Positions 1-61,142 of a DNA stretch of 64,000 nt are shown here, in pieces. Where the stretch lies: assembly GCA_036001325.1 (NCBI GenBank), contig DASYUK010000480.1:1033-65032 (forward strand), written 5' to 3'. Under the pieces are notes generated by a model. That model had not been told where the DNA came from. It saw only the letters and a program-made list of their open reading frames with translations, and made no database searches. Within the stretch, counting starts at the first letter, position 1; every line of letters begins with the position of its first letter. A program made the position numbers and the translations under genes. The stretch comes from Thermoanaerobaculia bacterium. GTDB lineage: Bacteria > Acidobacteriota > Thermoanaerobaculia > Gp7-AA8.

Positions 1-217
1 CCACGGCTCGACCATCGGTCAGCTCGAAGAGGAACCGCTGTTCTATCTCCGCTCTCGCGGCATCGGCGAAGAGGATGCGCGCAACCTGCTCGTGTACGCG
101 TTCGCCAGCGAGATCGTCGACAGGATGAAGGTCGAGCCGATTCGCGAACACGTGCGCCGGGCGATGTTCGCGCAGATGCCGGGACGTTTGCCGGAGAGAA
201 GGGAGGGGACGCGATGA
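1..217 (+). CDS. sufD: Fe-S cluster assembly protein SufD, C-terminal fragment (5' end outside window)
   Basis: In-frame translation ...TIGQLEEEPLFYLRSRGIGEEDARNLLVYAFASEIV... matches the conserved SufD C-terminus; stop TGA overlaps sufS ATG (ATGA). Confidence 0.6.
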   Translation, partial: HGSTIGQLEEEPLFYLRSRGIGEEDARNLLVYAFASEIVDRMKVEPIREHVRRAMFAQMPGRLPERREGTR

Positions 218-2531: not shown

Positions 2532-3116
2532 ATGCCGTTCTGCGCTTACTGCGGTACGCCCGTCGACGCCATCTCGTACGCTCCGTGTCCCTCCTGCGGG
2601 AATCCGCGCAACGGTGCACCGCGTCCGGCGGTGAAGAAGGGCGGAAATGCCGCGATCATCATCGCGGCGGTCGTGATCGGCGGCCTCGTAGTCTTGGCGA
2701 TCGGCGGCATTCTGGCGGCGATTGCGATTCCTAACCTGCTCACTGCCATGCAAAGGACCAGGCAGAAGCGCACGATGGCCGACATGAGCGCGATCGGCAC
2801 TGCGGTCGAAGCGTATGGAAGCGATCAGCACAAGTATCCGACAGCCAGCGAGCTCGATTCGCTCATGCCGAAGTACGTCAGGAACCTTCCGCGCACTGAC
2901 GGGTGGGAGCATCCGTACCTCTACCAGTGCTGGAGCACGCACGGCGGCACCGACTGCGACGCGTACGCGATCGGCAGCGCCGGCAAAGACGGCGTTTTCG
3001 AGCGAAATGACTTGAAGGAGTATCTGGATGGCAGCAGAGCGACGACGAACTTCAACAGCGACATCGTGTTTGCCAATGGCTCGTTCGTTCAGTATCCGGA
3101 AGGAGTGCAACACTGA
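2532..3116 (+). CDS. zinc-ribbon / TM / GspG-type pseudopilin-like domain fusion protein
   Basis: N-terminal CxxC...CxxC ribbon, one TM helix containing the pilin-like ILAAIAIPNL motif, then a domain paralleling T2SS GspG (ADMSAIGTAVEAY, DGWEHPY, SAGKDG) but without a prepilin G/FTLIE cleavage site. Confidence 0.6.
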   Translation: MPFCAYCGTPVDAISYAPCPSCGNPRNGAPRPAVKKGGNAAIIIAAVVIGGLVVLAIGGILAAIAIPNLLTAMQRTRQKRTMADMSAIGTAVEAYGSDQHKYPTASELDSLMPKYVRNLPRTDGWEHPYLYQCWSTHGGTDCDAYAIGSAGKDGVFERNDLKEYLDGSRATTNFNSDIVFANGSFVQYPEGVQH

Positions 3117-7400: not shown

Positions 7401-7412
7401 GTCTTCAAGGGT

Positions 7413-7497
7413 GTCAGGTCTTCAGTTTTCAGTTTTTTTCTACGACCATTGGATTTTTCCAAGACCGGTAGAAAAAAACTGAAAACTGAAGACCTGA
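7413..7497. terminator. perfect 31-bp inverted repeat (bidirectional terminator-like) with U/A tracts
   Basis: gtcaggtcttcagttttcagtttttttctac ... gtagaaaaaaactgaaaactgaagacctgac; lies between MCE gene stop and ddl start on the minus strand. Confidence 0.75.
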
Positions 7498-7503
7498 CCC
7501 CAT

Positions 7504-9036
7504 TTACTTCCCGATCGGGATGCTTCCGAGCAGATACTTCAAATCGTCGTCGCGCCAGCGGATGCCGCCGCCAATCGTGAAAGCGACGTCATTGAGCGGG
7601 TTGTCGACGCCCGCCGTCACAAAAAGGCGCGGCGTTTTCGGTTTCTCGCGCCGCAGCGTGTACTCGCCATAAGCGCGGAAGTGGGGACTGTTGTCGTAGC
7701 GCTGGCCGAAATCGAACGCTTCGCCGGTGAGCCGTACACGCGGATTGAACTGATAATCCGCGCCGACGCCGCCGGTGTTGTCGATCAGACCGACGCGCAG
7801 GCCGAGGTTATCGAGCAACCATCCCGCCTGCGCGGTGATGCGGAAGTCGCGATCGAATCGCGTCTCGTGCGTGATTGTCGTCGTCGTGATTCCTGTTGCC
7901 GGATTCGTCACGGTGAGAATCGTGTCTTTCTCGCGCTTGCGGCCGCGTGGATCGTCCGCGAGCTCGATGTTGTAGAAGCGGTTCCGATCGACATTCGGAA
8001 TCAATCGAAGCGTGGCCGCCGATCGCGAGCTGCCGCCGAAATTCTTGATTCCGTTCTGTTCCTTGTTGAGACCAGCCATGTAGTCGGCCTTCAGACCGAG
8101 GTCCATGCCGATCTTGCTCACGCGGCCGAGCGTGGTTCTCAGCTCGGTGACGCCCGTATCGACAGAAGCGAGAGCGGACGTGAGCCGCTCGTGCGCTTCG
8201 GGACTGTAGATCAGCTTCCCGACAGTTCCCTGGCCGCTCTTCACCTGGCCGGTGATGTCGTTCAGGTTGGTCGTGGTGATCTTCAAATCGGCGGAGAGCG
8301 TCCGCAGGTTTTCGACGACGCGGCGCAGGTCCTCGCGATTCTCACCGACTGTGCCGCCGATCTGATTGGCCACACGATCGAGCGACGCGGCCAGCTTGGG
8401 GATCTCCATGCGCAGGTCCGCCGTGATCGCGCGCATGTTGCCGACGGTAGCGTCGACGTTCGCGCGGTTCGCGGCGATCAACTCGCGCGTCTCGGCGGTG
8501 ATCAGCCGGACGTTCTCGACGATGTCCTCGAGCCTCTCTTGGCCGCCCGGTCCCGCCATCACGTGCCGCAGAGATTCGGTGATCGCTTTCACGTCGGCGG
8601 CGATGAGTGAGATCTGATTCGTCACGTCATCGATCGATGCCGGCGAGGTTCCTCGCAGCGTCACGGTCACCTGCGGCGGCATCGCCGGCGCGTTCTGCGT
8701 TCCCGGATCGAGCTCGACGTATTTCTCGCCCAGGAGACCGAGGTTCGCGACGTGCGCCGAAGCGTTGCTGCGCATCGGGACGTCGTCATCGATCTCCAGC
8801 GTCACTTCCGCTTTCCCGTTCGGGAGCAGCCGGATCTTCGACACTTTTCCCTTGCGCACGCCGGCCACGCGCACGGCTGATTTCTCATCGAGACCGGCGA
8901 CATTGTCGAAGATCACCTTGACCTGGCGCGTCCCTTTGCCGCGACTGATGTCGATGTCCTCGATCTTCAGGATGAAGTAGCCGAGGATGCCGAGGATGAT
9001 CAGCATGAAGACGCCGACTTTGGCTGCTGGTGACAT
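7504..9036 (-). CDS. MCE/MlaD-family protein with long C-terminal extension
   Basis: N-terminal TM plus MCE domain (VKVIFDNVAGLDEKSAVRVAGVRKGKV); about 350 aa extension ending in beta-strand-rich region with terminal aromatic-rich segment. Confidence 0.8.
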   Translation of the reverse strand: MSPAAKVGVFMLIILGILGYFILKIEDIDISRGKGTRQVKVIFDNVAGLDEKSAVRVAGVRKGKVSKIRLLPNGKAEVTLEIDDDVPMRSNASAHVANLGLLGEKYVELDPGTQNAPAMPPQVTVTLRGTSPASIDDVTNQISLIAADVKAITESLRHVMAGPGGQERLEDIVENVRLITAETRELIAANRANVDATVGNMRAITADLRMEIPKLAASLDRVANQIGGTVGENREDLRRVVENLRTLSADLKITTTNLNDITGQVKSGQGTVGKLIYSPEAHERLTSALASVDTGVTELRTTLGRVSKIGMDLGLKADYMAGLNKEQNGIKNFGGSSRSAATLRLIPNVDRNRFYNIELADDPRGRKREKDTILTVTNPATGITTTTITHETRFDRDFRITAQAGWLLDNLGLRVGLIDNTGGVGADYQFNPRVRLTGEAFDFGQRYDNSPHFRAYGEYTLRREKPKTPRLFVTAGVDNPLNDVAFTIGGGIRWRDDDLKYLLGSIPIGK

Positions 9037-30422: not shown

Positions 30423-30424
<2 letters not shown>

Positions 30425-30493
30425 TTTTGGATTTGCGATTTTGGATTTTGGATTGAGCCGAATCCAAAATCGAAAATCCAAAATCGAAAATGA
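30423..30493. promoter_or_regulatory. A/U-rich long imperfect inverted repeat of GATTTTG/CAAAATC units spanning the start codon of the downstream gene
   Basis: gattttggatttgcgattttggattttggatt gagccg aatccaaaatcgaaaatccaaaatcgaaaATG; no SD upstream of the ATG. Confidence 0.7.
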
Positions 30494-48956: not shown

Positions 48957-50021
48957 ATGAGCGAGCAAGCGACGGCCACAGGTGTCGTTCCCTCAGGGCC
49001 ATTCGTGGTCCGGGCGGTTCTGCGCACGGATGTCGGACGCGTTCGCTCCGAGAACCAGGACTTCGGGACGCTCACGACACCGGCCGAAGACAAGGGCGCG
49101 CATCCGGGCGGGCGGTTGATGATCGTCGCCGATGGCATGGGCGGGCATCGCGGTGGAGCCACGGCGTCGCGCCTCGCCGGCGAGACGATCAAGTCGTATT
49201 ACCTCGGCGGTGGAACCGACGATATCGCCGGCGCGCTTCGCGAGGCGTTGACACGCGCAAACTCGCTGATCTTCGCCGAGGCGCAGACGCATGCGGAATT
49301 GCACGGGATGGGAACGACGACTTCAGCGCTGGTCGTGCGTGGGAATGAAGCCTGGTTTGCGCACGTCGGCGACTCGCGCATCTATCTGATCCGCGGCGAT
49401 GAGATCAATCAGTTGACGGATGATCACTCGCTCGTCGCAACGATGGTCCGCGAAGGGTTGCTTACGGTGAAAGAGGCGGAGAATCATCCGCGACGAAACG
49501 TGCTCCAGAGATCGATAGGCGTCGGTGCGGAGGTGGAAATCGACGTGCGCGGGCCTCTCGAGGTGCAGCAGGGCGACACGTTCGTTCTCTGCAGCGACGG
49601 TTTGCACGGCCTCGTCAAACCGGAAGAGATCAAGGAGATCGTTGCGAACCGGCAGATCGAAGCGGCCGCCGACGATCTGGTCGATCACGCTCTCGAACGC
49701 GGCGCGCCCGACAACGTGACCGTGATCGTTGCGCGAATCGAGCGCGAGGATTTCGACGATGAGCCGACGGTCGTCGACCGCGAGCCTGATCGGGTAGCGT
49801 TCGACGATACGGTGCGGGAGGAGCGTCTCAGTGGAGCGCCGGTGTCCTCACCGGCGGTGCGTGACGCCGGTGAGGACACCGGCGCCCCACCGAGCACCGC
49901 CCCTCCCCGTCGCATCCGTGGATCAACGATCATCAAATGGATGTTGCTCTTCGTGGTCGTGCTCGGTGCGGCCGGCGCGTGGTTGTTCTTTGCCCAGCAG
50001 CAGATGTTTCATATCCGTTAG
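48957..50021 (+). CDS. PP2C-family Ser/Thr phosphatase with C-terminal TM segment
   Basis: RSENQDF, MIVADGMGGHRGG, CSDGL, ERGAPDNVTVIV motifs. Confidence 0.9.
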   Translation: MSEQATATGVVPSGPFVVRAVLRTDVGRVRSENQDFGTLTTPAEDKGAHPGGRLMIVADGMGGHRGGATASRLAGETIKSYYLGGGTDDIAGALREALTRANSLIFAEAQTHAELHGMGTTTSALVVRGNEAWFAHVGDSRIYLIRGDEINQLTDDHSLVATMVREGLLTVKEAENHPRRNVLQRSIGVGAEVEIDVRGPLEVQQGDTFVLCSDGLHGLVKPEEIKEIVANRQIEAAADDLVDHALERGAPDNVTVIVARIEREDFDDEPTVVDREPDRVAFDDTVREERLSGAPVSSPAVRDAGEDTGAPPSTAPPRRIRGSTIIKWMLLFVVVLGAAGAWLFFAQQQMFHIR

Positions 50022-56959: not shown

Positions 56960-59122
56960 ATGTCGCGATTGTCACGCGTGAGACTGCCGCGTTGGACGCT
57001 CGTCATCGCGGTCATCGCGTTCATCGCGATCGAGTCGTTCTTCGGCTATCTCGCCTTCCTCAATTACCGCCTATCCCGGGAGCTGGTTCACGGGAGTTGG
57101 CGCGATCCCACCGTCGTAGTGTCGGCCGCGGGAAGGCGGGAGCAGGAGGTCATGCGCCTCTACGGCGTCGACTGGAGAGTGACGGCGCCAGTGAGCCTCG
57201 ATTCCCTCCCGCGCTACGTGTCTGAAGCCTTCATCGCCGCCGAGGATGTTCGGTTTCGGCACCATGTGGGCGTCGACCCGATCGGCATCATCCGCGCGCT
57301 CATCGCCAATGTGCGCGGTGGTGGGATCGTCCAGGGCGGCAGCACGATCGATCAGCAGATCATCAAATCGCGCTTCCTGTCACAGGAGAGAACGTGGCGC
57401 CGAAAGTTCGTGGAGTTGTTACTGGCTGTGATTCTCGAGGCGCGATTGAGCAAGGACGAGATCCTCGAGCTCTACCTCAACGAGGTCTACCTCGGCCACT
57501 CCGGCGGCAGCCCGGTTCTCGGCGTCGACGAAGCTTCGCGTCTGTATTTCGCGAAGCCGGCGGAGCGTTTGCGCGTCGACGAAGCGGCGCTCCTGGCCAG
57601 CATCATCCGCGCTCCCAATCGTGACAACCCGCAAAAGCGACCCGATCTCGTGCGTGCCCGGCGCGACGCCATCCTGCGCGTGATGCTCGATCATCGTTGG
57701 ATCGATGACGCGGACTATCGCAGCGCTGTGGCGCGCCCGGTCGACTTCGTCGGCGGCTCAGTGCCCCAACCGCCGTTTCCTTACTACCTGCGCGCAGTGC
57801 GATCGGAGATCGTCAAGCGAATCGGCGTTCGCTCCGTCATCGAAGGCGGGCTGACGATCGTCTGCGAGATCGATCCCGTGGCGCAGCGTGCCGCCGAGCG
57901 CGTGGCCTTGCGCGCGCCGGAGCAGCTCGAGTCGCGATTCTCCTGGATCCGCGCGCAGTCGCGGCAGGAACCGCTGGAGGTGGCGATTCTCTCCGTCGAT
58001 CCGCGCAGCGGAGGCATTCGCGCGCTCGTCGGCGGTCGCGACTTCCGCCTCTCGCCGTTCGATCGCACGACGAACATGCGCCGTCAGCCGGGATCGGCGT
58101 TCAAGACGTTTGCGTACCTTGCCGCGATTGCGTCGCGGCGCGTGACCACGGCGTCGCTGTTGCTCGACGCGCCGGTCAAGATCGAGCTCAATGATCGCGA
58201 ATCGTGGACGCCGCAGAATTACGACGAGCGCTATCGCGGCCGGGTGACTCTGCGCGAAGCATTCGAAGCGTCGCTCAATGTGCCGACCGTGCGCATGACG
58301 CAGCAGGTGGGACTCAGGCGCGTCGTCAACACCGCGGAGAAGTTCGGATTCACCGAAGATCTCGCCGCGATTCCGGCGCTGCCTCTCGGCGTGACCGAAG
58401 TCTCGATGCGCGAGCTCACCGCCGCCTACACACCGTTCCCGAATCTCGGCGTGCGCGTCGAACCGTATCTGCTGACGGAAGTGCGCGACCGGCATGGCCA
58501 GACGCTGTTCCGCAACAAGCCGCAGGAGAAGCGCGTGTGCGAATCGGACGTCGCGTATGTCATGCACTCGCTTCTGCGCGGCGTCGTGCGCCGCGGCACC
58601 GCATCGCGCCTGAAGCGTTATGGCCTCGCGTACGTCGCGGGCAAAACCGGCACGACGAACGATTATCGCGACGCGTGGTTCGTCGGTTACACACCCGACA
58701 TCGTGACGACCGTCTGGGTTGGCTTCGATCACGGCGCACCGCTTCGCCTTTCGTCAGCCGAGGCAGCGATTCCGATCTGGGGAGCGTACATGGCTGCCGT
58801 TCCGCACATTCACGGCGAGCCGAAACCTCCCGCCGGCGTCACATTCCGCGACATCGATCCCGACACGGGCATGCTGTGGGATGAGGGATGTCCTGGTCCG
58901 GTGCATGAGGTTTTTCTCGACGGCACGGCACCGACGCGACATTGCCCGCGCGGCTTCTTCGGCGGCATCATCCGCCGCGTGTTCTTCGACCGCGAGAGCT
59001 TCGACGAACCACCGGCCATCACGTTCGAGAAGTTCCGCGAGTGGGCGAACGAGGTAGATAGGAATCGGAAGGATGTGGAGGGGTTCTTAGGACGACTCAG
59101 GAGAATATTTGGAAAAGATTAG
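56960..59122 (+). CDS. mrcA: bifunctional class A penicillin-binding protein (GT51 transglycosylase + transpeptidase)
   Basis: EDVRFRHHVGVDP, GGSTIDQQ (GT51) and SxxK/SxN/KTG (SAFKTF...KTGTTND) motifs. Confidence 0.9.
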   Translation: MSRLSRVRLPRWTLVIAVIAFIAIESFFGYLAFLNYRLSRELVHGSWRDPTVVVSAAGRREQEVMRLYGVDWRVTAPVSLDSLPRYVSEAFIAAEDVRFRHHVGVDPIGIIRALIANVRGGGIVQGGSTIDQQIIKSRFLSQERTWRRKFVELLLAVILEARLSKDEILELYLNEVYLGHSGGSPVLGVDEASRLYFAKPAERLRVDEAALLASIIRAPNRDNPQKRPDLVRARRDAILRVMLDHRWIDDADYRSAVARPVDFVGGSVPQPPFPYYLRAVRSEIVKRIGVRSVIEGGLTIVCEIDPVAQRAAERVALRAPEQLESRFSWIRAQSRQEPLEVAILSVDPRSGGIRALVGGRDFRLSPFDRTTNMRRQPGSAFKTFAYLAAIASRRVTTASLLLDAPVKIELNDRESWTPQNYDERYRGRVTLREAFEASLNVPTVRMTQQVGLRRVVNTAEKFGFTEDLAAIPALPLGVTEVSMRELTAAYTPFPNLGVRVEPYLLTEVRDRHGQTLFRNKPQEKRVCESDVAYVMHSLLRGVVRRGTASRLKRYGLAYVAGKTGTTNDYRDAWFVGYTPDIVTTVWVGFDHGAPLRLSSAEAAIPIWGAYMAAVPHIHGEPKPPAGVTFRDIDPDTGMLWDEGCPGPVHEVFLDGTAPTRHCPRGFFGGIIRRVFFDRESFDEPPAITFEKFREWANEVDRNRKDVEGFLGRLRRIFGKD

Positions 59123-59136
59123 CCGAAAGGGCCAAT

Positions 59137-59165
59137 TTGACAGTCCAGGTTTGGAGGTCTACATT
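59137..59165 (+). promoter_or_regulatory. sigma-70-like promoter (TTGACA-17 nt-TACATT)
   Basis: Consensus -35 at 59137-59142, 17-nt spacer, -10 TACATT at 59160-59165. Confidence 0.5.
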
Positions 59166-59171
59166 GACCGT

Positions 59172-59240
59172 GCTGGATTGATTTGGGGCCGCTTGCGACC
59201 AGCCTAAAAAAAGCTAAATCGCCGCCGCAGTCGATCGTGA
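59172..59240 (+). promoter_or_regulatory. candidate SAM-II/SAM-V-like riboswitch aptamer in leader of Met-cycle gene
   Basis: GAUUUGGGGCCGCUUGCGACCAGCCUAAAAAAAGCUAAAUC contains the AAAGCUAAA 3' strand typical of SAM-II pseudoknot aptamers (from memory); followed by intrinsic terminator. Confidence 0.35.
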
Positions 59241-59244
59241 CCGG

Positions 59245-59266
59245 CCCCGCTTTGGCGGGGTTTTTT
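59245..59266 (+). terminator. intrinsic terminator (6-bp GC stem + U6) 5 nt upstream of the start codon
   Basis: ccccgc tttg gcgggg tttttt then gtttATG. Confidence 0.55.
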
Positions 59267-59270
59267 GTTT

Positions 59271-61142
<1,872 letters not shown>

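Follow-up and report, generated by a model that had tools for sequence, protein, structure and literature searches.

Whether the short leader of a methionine-synthesis gene in a Thermoanaerobaculia bacterium (Acidobacteriota) is a riboswitch for S-adenosylmethionine (SAM), and in which direction such a riboswitch would act, is the question raised by this locus. The leader lies in a 64,000-nt stretch of contig DASYUK010000480.1 (assembly GCA_036001325.1), hereafter the window, and precedes a gene for a 623-residue protein in which an S-methyl_trans domain (Pfam PF02574) is fused to an MTHFR domain (PF02219). The protein scores 735.8 bits against NCBIfam NF006396 (cut-off 453), the bifunctional homocysteine S-methyltransferase/methylenetetrahydrofolate reductase equivalog, and is therefore referred to as yitJ-like. 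An earlier note, made from the letters of the DNA, had read the leader as a promoter, a SAM-II/SAM-V-like aptamer, and an intrinsic terminator. The analysis described here favors, with a probability of roughly 0.8 and on the strength of comparative sequence evidence, a SAM-II-class SAM riboswitch that turns the yitJ-like gene OFF by terminating its transcription. The core proposal of the earlier note, a SAM-II-type aptamer joined to an intrinsic terminator before a methionine-synthesis gene, is supported by (i) a specific sub-threshold match in Rfam, (ii) an invariant core, (iii) covariation in the first helix, P1, (iv) gene contexts in methionine and SAM metabolism, and (v) relatives that score above the threshold of the family RF01726.

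Conservation and class of the leader

Orthologs of the yitJ-like gene were collected from 80 species-level genomes, all metagenome-assembled genomes of Thermoanaerobaculia/Acidobacteriota, with protein identities of 81-96%. The same leader stands upstream of the ortholog in 74 of the 80 loci. Four of the six negative loci are cut by contig ends or come without upstream sequence, and the other two (L055 and L061) have no leader. In these two (positions 2740-3000 of each), the gene follows a divergent neighbor after a short spacer, and the leader was either lost or never present; L061 has a TTGACA promoter only ~40 nt before the ATG.

A 75-sequence alignment of the leaders gives an almost invariant aptamer, GCUGG-A-U-GAUUU-GGGG..G.UUGC.ACCAG...AAAAAA.GCUAAA..GCCG, with free drift in the 5′ flank, the linker, and the terminator loop. 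The aptamer-like segment quoted in the earlier note is present (Table 1). Its core pattern occurs once in the 64-kb window and in none of 100 shuffles, and no second riboswitch copy was found in the window by a relaxed Rfam scan or by a search with the core pattern.

The conserved blocks correspond to the parts of a SAM-II aptamer. GAUUU, the putative third strand of the SAM-binding triple helix, is invariant in the 75 leaders and in 20 wider-family sequences and is aligned to the conserved GAUUUG of RF01726 and RF00521. UUGC, one strand of helix P2b, is also invariant, and all four of its pairs are possible in 100% of the sequences under a pairing scheme taken from the description of the SAM-V structure (PMC6061858). 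Such constancy would be in keeping with a ligand pocket that is fixed. The L3 strand contains a continuous A7 run; the A-run is invariant and aligned to that of RF01726. GCUAAA, the opposite P2b strand, is the same in all 75 leaders and all 20 wider-family sequences, and roles were assigned to its nucleotides by analogy with U47 and A48-A50 of SAM-V (PMC6061858). The nucleotides that make up the SAM-II/SAM-V pocket (the third-strand U's, UUGC, the bulged U, and AAA; PMC6061858) are thus invariant, which supports assignment to the SAM-II class.

Two nucleotides past GCUAAA, 72 of 74 distinct leaders have GCC, in register with the P2a of the RF00521 alignment. A 3-bp P2a, GG(C/U):GCC, is possible in 99% of the alignment cells with one-sided changes only (C/U opposite G), so this proximal pairing is proposed here without covariation. 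The P2a of SAM-II riboswitches has 5 bp in 60% of cases and tends to C-G pairs (PMC6061858), as compared with 3 bp here. The nucleotide directly after the proximal GCC, G59224 (GCCG; alignment column 63), is conserved in at least 90% of the leaders and has no partner in either of the states proposed below.

The earlier note had also pointed to a conserved 3′ pseudoknot strand. The strand is there, but its description was loose: GC-U-AAA would pair with UUGC, and GAUUU would be the third strand of the triplex rather than a partner of AAAUC. The GAUUU:AAAUC pairing implied by the note was rejected, as the two bases past GCUAAA vary (UC, UU, UA, GA, AG, GG, CC). An alternative pseudoknot, GCUU:AAGC, was dropped in favor of UUGC:GC-U-AA after the published description of the SAM-V/SAM-II structures (PMC6061858); L068 and RF01726 have GAUU at that place.

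The inner four pairs of P1 are invariant within the clade. In a 20-sequence alignment that spans the clade, metH-type leaders, and RF01726 members, three core pairs change on both sides, with counts of CG13/GC7, UA18/AU2, and GC7/CG5/AU1/UG1. The covariation score of P1 in this alignment was reached by none of 500 shuffles and collapses in slid controls.

The wider family was sampled by a metagenome scan with the core pattern, which returned 120 loci, many of them AT-rich chance matches; only loci with a P1 stem and a methionine/SAM context were used. They comprise (i) further copies of the same leader, (ii) GC-rich copies with the P1 variant CCUGG/CCAGG before metH (NF007024, 1803 bits with a cut-off of 1497), and (iii) AT-rich copies with P1 of GGUGG/CCAC or GAGG/CCUC, five of which precede metK and all seven of which score 48-66 bits on RF01726 (threshold 44). 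The motif is thereby found before three methionine/SAM genes, namely the yitJ-like fusion, metH, and metK. None of the seven GC-rich metagenome copies tested rises above any Rfam threshold.

In the window itself, the best match of the leader is to RF01726 ("SAM-II long loop"), full-length at 33 bits (threshold 44), with an E-value of 1e-4 when 301 nt are searched and of 0.021 when the whole window is compared with 4227 families. RF00521 matches with 19.2 bits (threshold 36). At relaxed thresholds, the SAM-II models are the sole riboswitch-type matches in the leader, the remaining ones covering the terminator hairpin only, and SAM-V (RF01826), SAM-I/S-box (RF00162), and SAM/SAH (RF01727) give no match at E up to 10 within 59050-59350. 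Together, the covariation of P1 and the graded relation to above-threshold RF01726 members place the leader, as judged from sequence, in a divergent GC-rich branch of the SAM-II/long-loop class.

The proposed switch and its alternatives

The leader ends in a hairpin of eight pairs, six of them GC, with a 4-nt loop and a T6 tract; this hairpin is predicted to be an intrinsic (Rho-independent) terminator. In the DNA it reads GGCCCCGC-TTTG-GCGGGGTT (59243-59262), with T6 at 59261-59266 and GTTT before the ATG at 59271. The hairpin and U6 tract of the earlier note are confirmed, with a gap of 4 nt to the ATG instead of the 5 that it gave. The terminator is kept in all related leaders and shows compensatory AU/GC changes at one stem pair.

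The 5′ arm of this terminator, Y-Y-CCCC-(A/G), is complementary to a segment of the aptamer loop, (U)GGGG-X1-X2-(G). In the first alignment, 86.8% of the cells of this loop:arm helix are paired, versus 39.7-64.2% with a slid partner, and the pair of columns 29 and 95 reads CG52, GC11, AU5, and GU3. The terminator stem does not include column 95 and so does not account for the pattern. Among 93 distinct leaders, the X2:Y2 pair is CG66, GC11, AU5, GU3, and UA3 with five mismatches, i.e., five standard pair types, and the helix is contiguous over 7-8 bp in 68 of the 93 and reaches up to 12 bp. The loops of metH-type leaders that carry an extra GC (GCGGGGCUG) face arms reading CAGCCCCGC. Loops bind arms of their own class with a mean of −15.9 kcal/mol and those of other classes with −13.8 kcal/mol, the own arm being at least as strong in nearly all cases. 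In the window, the duplex UGGGGCCG:CGGCCCCG amounts to −16.4 kcal/mol and, for a transcript that stops at 59250, is the fold of minimum energy. This long-range helix is read as the antiterminator of the SAM-free state.

Other pairings were considered and set aside. An anti-aptamer helix between GAUUGAUU (59176-59184) and AGUCGAUC in the linker, which is part of the minimum-energy fold of the window, is peculiar to the window. Duplexes between the third strand and the linker average −4.00 kcal/mol across 82 linkers, with −4.03 kcal/mol for shuffles (p = 0.99). Pairing of the tail GCCG with a CGGC just 5′ of the terminator arm fits the CC-loop class only, not the CG class. RNAalifold, run on the clade alignment, recovers the terminator and also arbitrary pairs among invariant aptamer columns, and is uninformative for the pseudoknot. 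The linker has a mean hairpin energy of −3.5 kcal/mol versus −3.0 kcal/mol for shuffles (p ~0.01 for sequences that are not independent), and −1.4 kcal/mol in the window. A weak UCGAA...UUCGA hairpin occurs in many relatives and is essentially missing in the window; the case for it as a conserved element is weak, and the linker is treated as a spacer. As a separate observation, the metH leader L197 (4512-4631) and the yitJ-type leaders L014 (2881-3000) and L046 (2462-2580) share an unusual strong linker hairpin, GUCGUCCCGCGCGGCGGGACGA, which suggests that the leader was duplicated between metH and yitJ-type genes within one lineage.

From these elements, the following mechanism is proposed. 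Transcription would start at about 59172, directly with P1 (GCUGG/CCAGC), whose loop would hold GAUUU as the third strand, GGGGCC as the G-rich segment that switches, and UUGC for P2b. Downstream, the 3′ tail would supply the A-rich L3, the P2b partner GC-U-AAA, and, two nucleotides on, the proximal GCC. With SAM bound, an H-type pseudoknot would close, with UUGC paired to GC-AA and GAUUU lying in the major groove around SAM. The loop G-G-C would then pair with the proximal GCC as a 3-bp P2a and the switching segment would be buried, leaving the terminator 5′ arm without a partner. The hairpin could thus form some 20-30 nt later, and RNA polymerase would stop 4 nt before the ATG. Without SAM, the loop would stay free, and the newly made arm CGGCCCCG would pair with UGGGGCCG over 7-8 bp, so that the terminator is blocked and the polymerase reads through. 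The linker of 18-30 nt would set the time window for ligand binding. We infer SAM binding itself, the OFF direction, and the role of the 3-bp P2a; the direction is preferred because the long-range helix is strong without ligand, because the invariance of the proximal GCC would otherwise go unexplained, because the genes are biosynthetic, and because SAM-II, SAM-V, and the yitJ gene of Bacillus subtilis provide precedent.

Several observations weigh against this reading. No match above the gathering threshold was found when the whole window was compared with 4227 Rfam families, and 17 of 18 orthologous leaders tested likewise stay below threshold, L071 alone passing (36.6 bits on RF00521, threshold 36). 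The P2b and P2a columns show no two-sided variation within the clade, so for the pseudoknot the case is made by conservation and by analogy, not by covariation. In 18 of 94 leaders, G faces G at the outermost position of P1. Because the leaders are related, fewer independent events lie behind the covarying cells than their counts suggest. In the full-length leader, the terminator fold (−34.4 kcal/mol) is ~8 kcal/mol more stable than the antiterminator fold (−26.0 kcal/mol), so once the 3′ arm exists, read-through would need kinetic control. The whole leader is no more stable than shuffled sequence (z = −0.28). The earlier note had named an above-threshold Rfam match among the yardsticks for its proposal; the window indeed holds none, but the comparative evidence shows this yardstick to be too strict, and the null result of the whole-window search was not taken as evidence of absence in view of the sub-threshold, SAM-II-specific matches.

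The same loop:arm helix could instead belong to the bound fold of an ON switch. Loop GGGGCC and arm GGCCCC would then form an extended P2a with a ~30-nt insertion, stacked on the triplex, and SAM would stabilize the antiterminator. The helix does sit at the P2a position of SAM-II, where P2a usually has 5 bp and is GC-rich (PMC6061858); it covaries while the proximal 3-bp P2a does not, and on the loop strand it lies a single unpaired nucleotide away from P2b. A GC helix of 7-8 bp and about −16 kcal/mol, however, would form without any ligand, and the GCC that 72 of 74 leaders keep in the canonical P2a register would be left without a role. The yitJ-like and metH products, moreover, make methionine, and comparable genes are repressed by SAM (PMC1273637; PMC8603990). 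An ON switch is therefore very unlikely; if true, the SAM-II/V class would gain its first ON-type member, located before methionine-synthase genes. Much more likely is the arrangement contained in the OFF model, in which a single loop strand would pair either with its proximal partner, over 3 bp, or with the terminator arm, which would act as a decoy.

Control might also be exerted mainly on translation, with the terminator 3′ arm GCGGGG, which ends 10 nt before the ATG, acting as a ribosome-binding site that is exposed or hidden by SAM-dependent refolding and termination playing a secondary part. This is very unlikely. In its favor, there is no other sequence that resembles a Shine-Dalgarno (SD) site, the ATG follows the stem at SD distance (7-12 nt) in 33 of 72 related loci, and both SAM-V and the metX SAM-II riboswitch act by SD sequestration (PMC6061858). 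Yet in the other 39 of the 72 loci the spacer is 17-135 nt, which makes the arm unusable as an SD while the hairpin and U-tract are kept all the same; GGGG is a weak SD, and nothing expected of an intrinsic terminator is missing from the hairpin. A translational effect might supplement termination instead of taking its place. Within 59255-59273 of the window, the G-rich 3′ arm (GCGGGG; GUGGGG in relatives) would be single-stranded only in antiterminated RNA and could provide such a translational layer.

The least probable of the alternatives, and a very improbable one, is a leader conserved for reasons other than SAM sensing, such as a constitutive attenuator, a protein-binding site, or a small RNA with a superficial likeness to SAM-II. 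The low Rfam scores speak for it, but they have to be set against nucleotides that contact SAM in the solved structures and are invariant across 93 leaders while their neighbors drift, against a motif tied to three different methionine/SAM genes that grades into above-threshold RF01726 members, and against a core pattern with zero chance matches in shuffles.

Layout of the locus

The features of the locus are collected in Table 1. The sigma-70-type promoter reported in the earlier note is in place and is the sole promoter-like site within 58500-60000, where 0.1 are expected from shuffles. A −35/−10 element (TTGNNN-16..18-TANNNT) is present in 61 of the 75 related leaders, and its −10 box ends 6-8 nt before P1 in nearly all 61, so the transcript should start with the aptamer, here probably at 59171-59173, the first nucleotide of P1. 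SAM-II riboswitches show the same arrangement, with the promoter a few nucleotides ahead of P1 (Corbino et al.; PMC1273637). The leader length of 143 nt given in the earlier note fits no measure of the locus: the intergenic spacer has 148 nt, the stretch from the −35 box to the ATG measures 134 nt, and ~99 nt would be transcribed ahead of the ATG if transcription starts near 59172. The note was right that there is no SD; an AGGAGG-like sequence is absent, and the terminator 3′ arm contributes the sole purine run before the ATG, GGGG, at a distance of 10 nt.

Table 1. Coordinates of the leader, its predicted elements, and the adjoining genes in the window
Feature	Position (strand)	Sequence	Pairing or role
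Class-A penicillin-binding protein gene	56960-59122		upstream of the leader; Transgly and Transpeptidase domains
Intergenic spacer	59123-59270		between the penicillin-binding protein gene and the ATG
Sigma-70-type promoter	59137..59165 (+)	TTGACA, 17-nt spacer, TACATT	−35 at 59137-59142; −10 at 59160-59165
P1, 5′ strand	59172..59176 (+)	GCUGG	pairs with 59199-59203
Aptamer-like segment of the earlier note	59180-59220	GATTTGGGGCCGCTTGCGACCAGCCTAAAAAAAGCTAAATC
L1 third strand	59180..59184 (+)	GAUUU	putative third strand of the triplex around SAM; role taken from the SAM-V/SAM-II structures (PMC6061858)
Switching segment	59185..59191 (+)	GGGGCCG	in the P1 loop; G59187, G59188, and C59189 as putative 5′ strand of proximal P2a
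P2b, descending strand	59193..59196 (+)	UUGC	predicted pairs U59193:A59217, U59194:A59216, G59195:C59214, C59196:G59213
P1, 3′ strand	59199..59203 (+)	CCAGC	pairs with 59172-59176
L3	59204..59212 (+)	CUAAAAAAA	A-rich strand expected in the P1 minor groove, by analogy with structures (PMC6061858)
P2b, ascending strand	59213..59218 (+)	GCUAAA	U59215 bulged, would pair with the SAM adenine; A59216 and A59217 in putative U:A.U triples; A59218 counterpart of the A that holds the amino-acid end of SAM
Proximal P2a, 3′ strand	59221..59223 (+)	GCC	putative partner of G59187, G59188, and C59189
Variable linker	59224..59241 (+)		18 nt, usually 20-30 nt in relatives; spacer between aptamer and terminator arm
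Proposed antiterminator, 3′ strand	59242..59249 (+)	CGGCCCCG	predicted to pair with its 5′ strand, 59184-59191; overlaps the terminator 5′ arm
Predicted intrinsic terminator	59243..59270 (+)	GGCCCCGC/GCGGGGUU, then UUUUUUGUUU	stem 59243-59262, loop UUUG
yitJ-like gene	59271..61142 (+)		ATG at 59271

Short tandem repeats of 20-135 nt lie between the terminator and the ATG in the orthologous loci L015, L062, L029, L038, L047, L121, and L010, and also in L004 (1-147). Their units are 7-8 nt long (e.g., GGTTGCC, GGTTTTC, AGCAACCC) and are in some cases followed by their complement, like the heptamer-repeat hairpins of the window. Elsewhere in the window, three long intergenic inverted repeats surfaced as sub-threshold matches to microRNA-precursor models: 30423-30491, with 25-31 nt arms of tandem GATTTTG-like heptamers; 7407-7504, with 37-nt arms that are 95% complementary and lie between two minus-strand open reading frames (ORFs); and 49827-49894, with GC-rich 30-nt arms. 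They might be bidirectional terminators or members of a repeat-element family.

Comparison with known systems

The earlier note had regarded the coupling of a SAM-II-type aptamer to a terminator, and its occurrence in a non-proteobacterial lineage, as atypical. Published work contradicts the first part: most SAM-II riboswitches act at the level of transcription (PMC6061858), many have terminators between P2 and the ORF (PMC1273637; PMC2258182), and SAM-II is the class most often linked to terminators in Proteobacteria (PMC2258182). The mechanism of the transcriptional SAM-II riboswitches has been described as not experimentally established (PMC2258182). The second part stands, in that the host lies beyond the published distribution, which covers alpha-, beta-, and gamma-Proteobacteria and Bacteroidetes (PMC1273637; PMC2258182). 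No literature link between SAM-II and Acidobacteria was found, a weak negative given incomplete coverage.

What is new is the host lineage and the specific model of the expression platform, while the aptamer core was already known and the understanding of SAM sensing is unchanged. By sequence, an annotation gap is closed: the yitJ-like and metH genes of Thermoanaerobaculia-type Acidobacteriota, which are common soil bacteria, appear to be under SAM-II-class control that Rfam thresholds miss. The natural variation among 93 distinct leaders, which includes five pair types at a single position, provides a concrete and testable model of the expression platform of a transcriptional SAM-II riboswitch. 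Under the OFF model, the clade would offer the first sequence-resolved model of transcriptional SAM-II toggling.

The closest known family is RF01726, which was reportedly described by Weinberg et al. in 2010 from Bacteroidetes and marine metagenomes. It has in common with the acidobacterial leader the blocks GGA-N-U-GAUUUG...G(C/A)UUGCAACC...A-run...GCUAAA and a location before methionine/SAM genes. In one above-threshold member of the family, L136, the loop GGGCAG is complementary to the terminator 5′ arm CUGCCC, so the loop:arm arrangement is not unique to the acidobacterial clade. The leader differs from RF01726 in its fixed GGGG(N)2 loop segment, in a putative P2a partner that is GCC rather than CAG, and in its host, which is acidobacterial instead of Bacteroidetes or marine; its genes are yitJ-like and metH, and all GC-rich acidobacterial copies tested, like the window, fall below 44 bits.

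Classical SAM-II riboswitches (the metA motif, RF00521 "SAM_alpha"; Corbino et al. 2005) resemble the leader in the H-type pseudoknot proposed for it, the promoter near P1, the terminator between P2 and the ORF, and the association with methionine genes (PMC1273637). The leader is set apart from them by a predicted P2a of 3 bp, an L3 that is a continuous A7, and a lineage outside Proteobacteria and Bacteroidetes. SAM-V (RF01826), found before metY of "Ca. Pelagibacter ubique", follows the same binding-site logic as proposed here, with third-strand U's, UUGC, a bulged U, AAA, and a short P2a, bistable and dependent on SAM (PMC6061858). Unlike SAM-V, which is translational and has its SD inside P2a, the leader has no P3 hairpin in L3 and no SD beside GCUAAA, and it carries a terminator.

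The functional counterpart is the SAM-I (S-box) riboswitch of B. subtilis yitJ, an analogy drawn in the earlier note that holds, since this riboswitch acts by transcription termination (PMC8603990). Enzyme and ligand are the same as those proposed here, and termination is likewise induced by SAM through competition between terminator and antiterminator (PMC8603990), whereas the aptamer of SAM-I, a four-way junction, has an unrelated fold.

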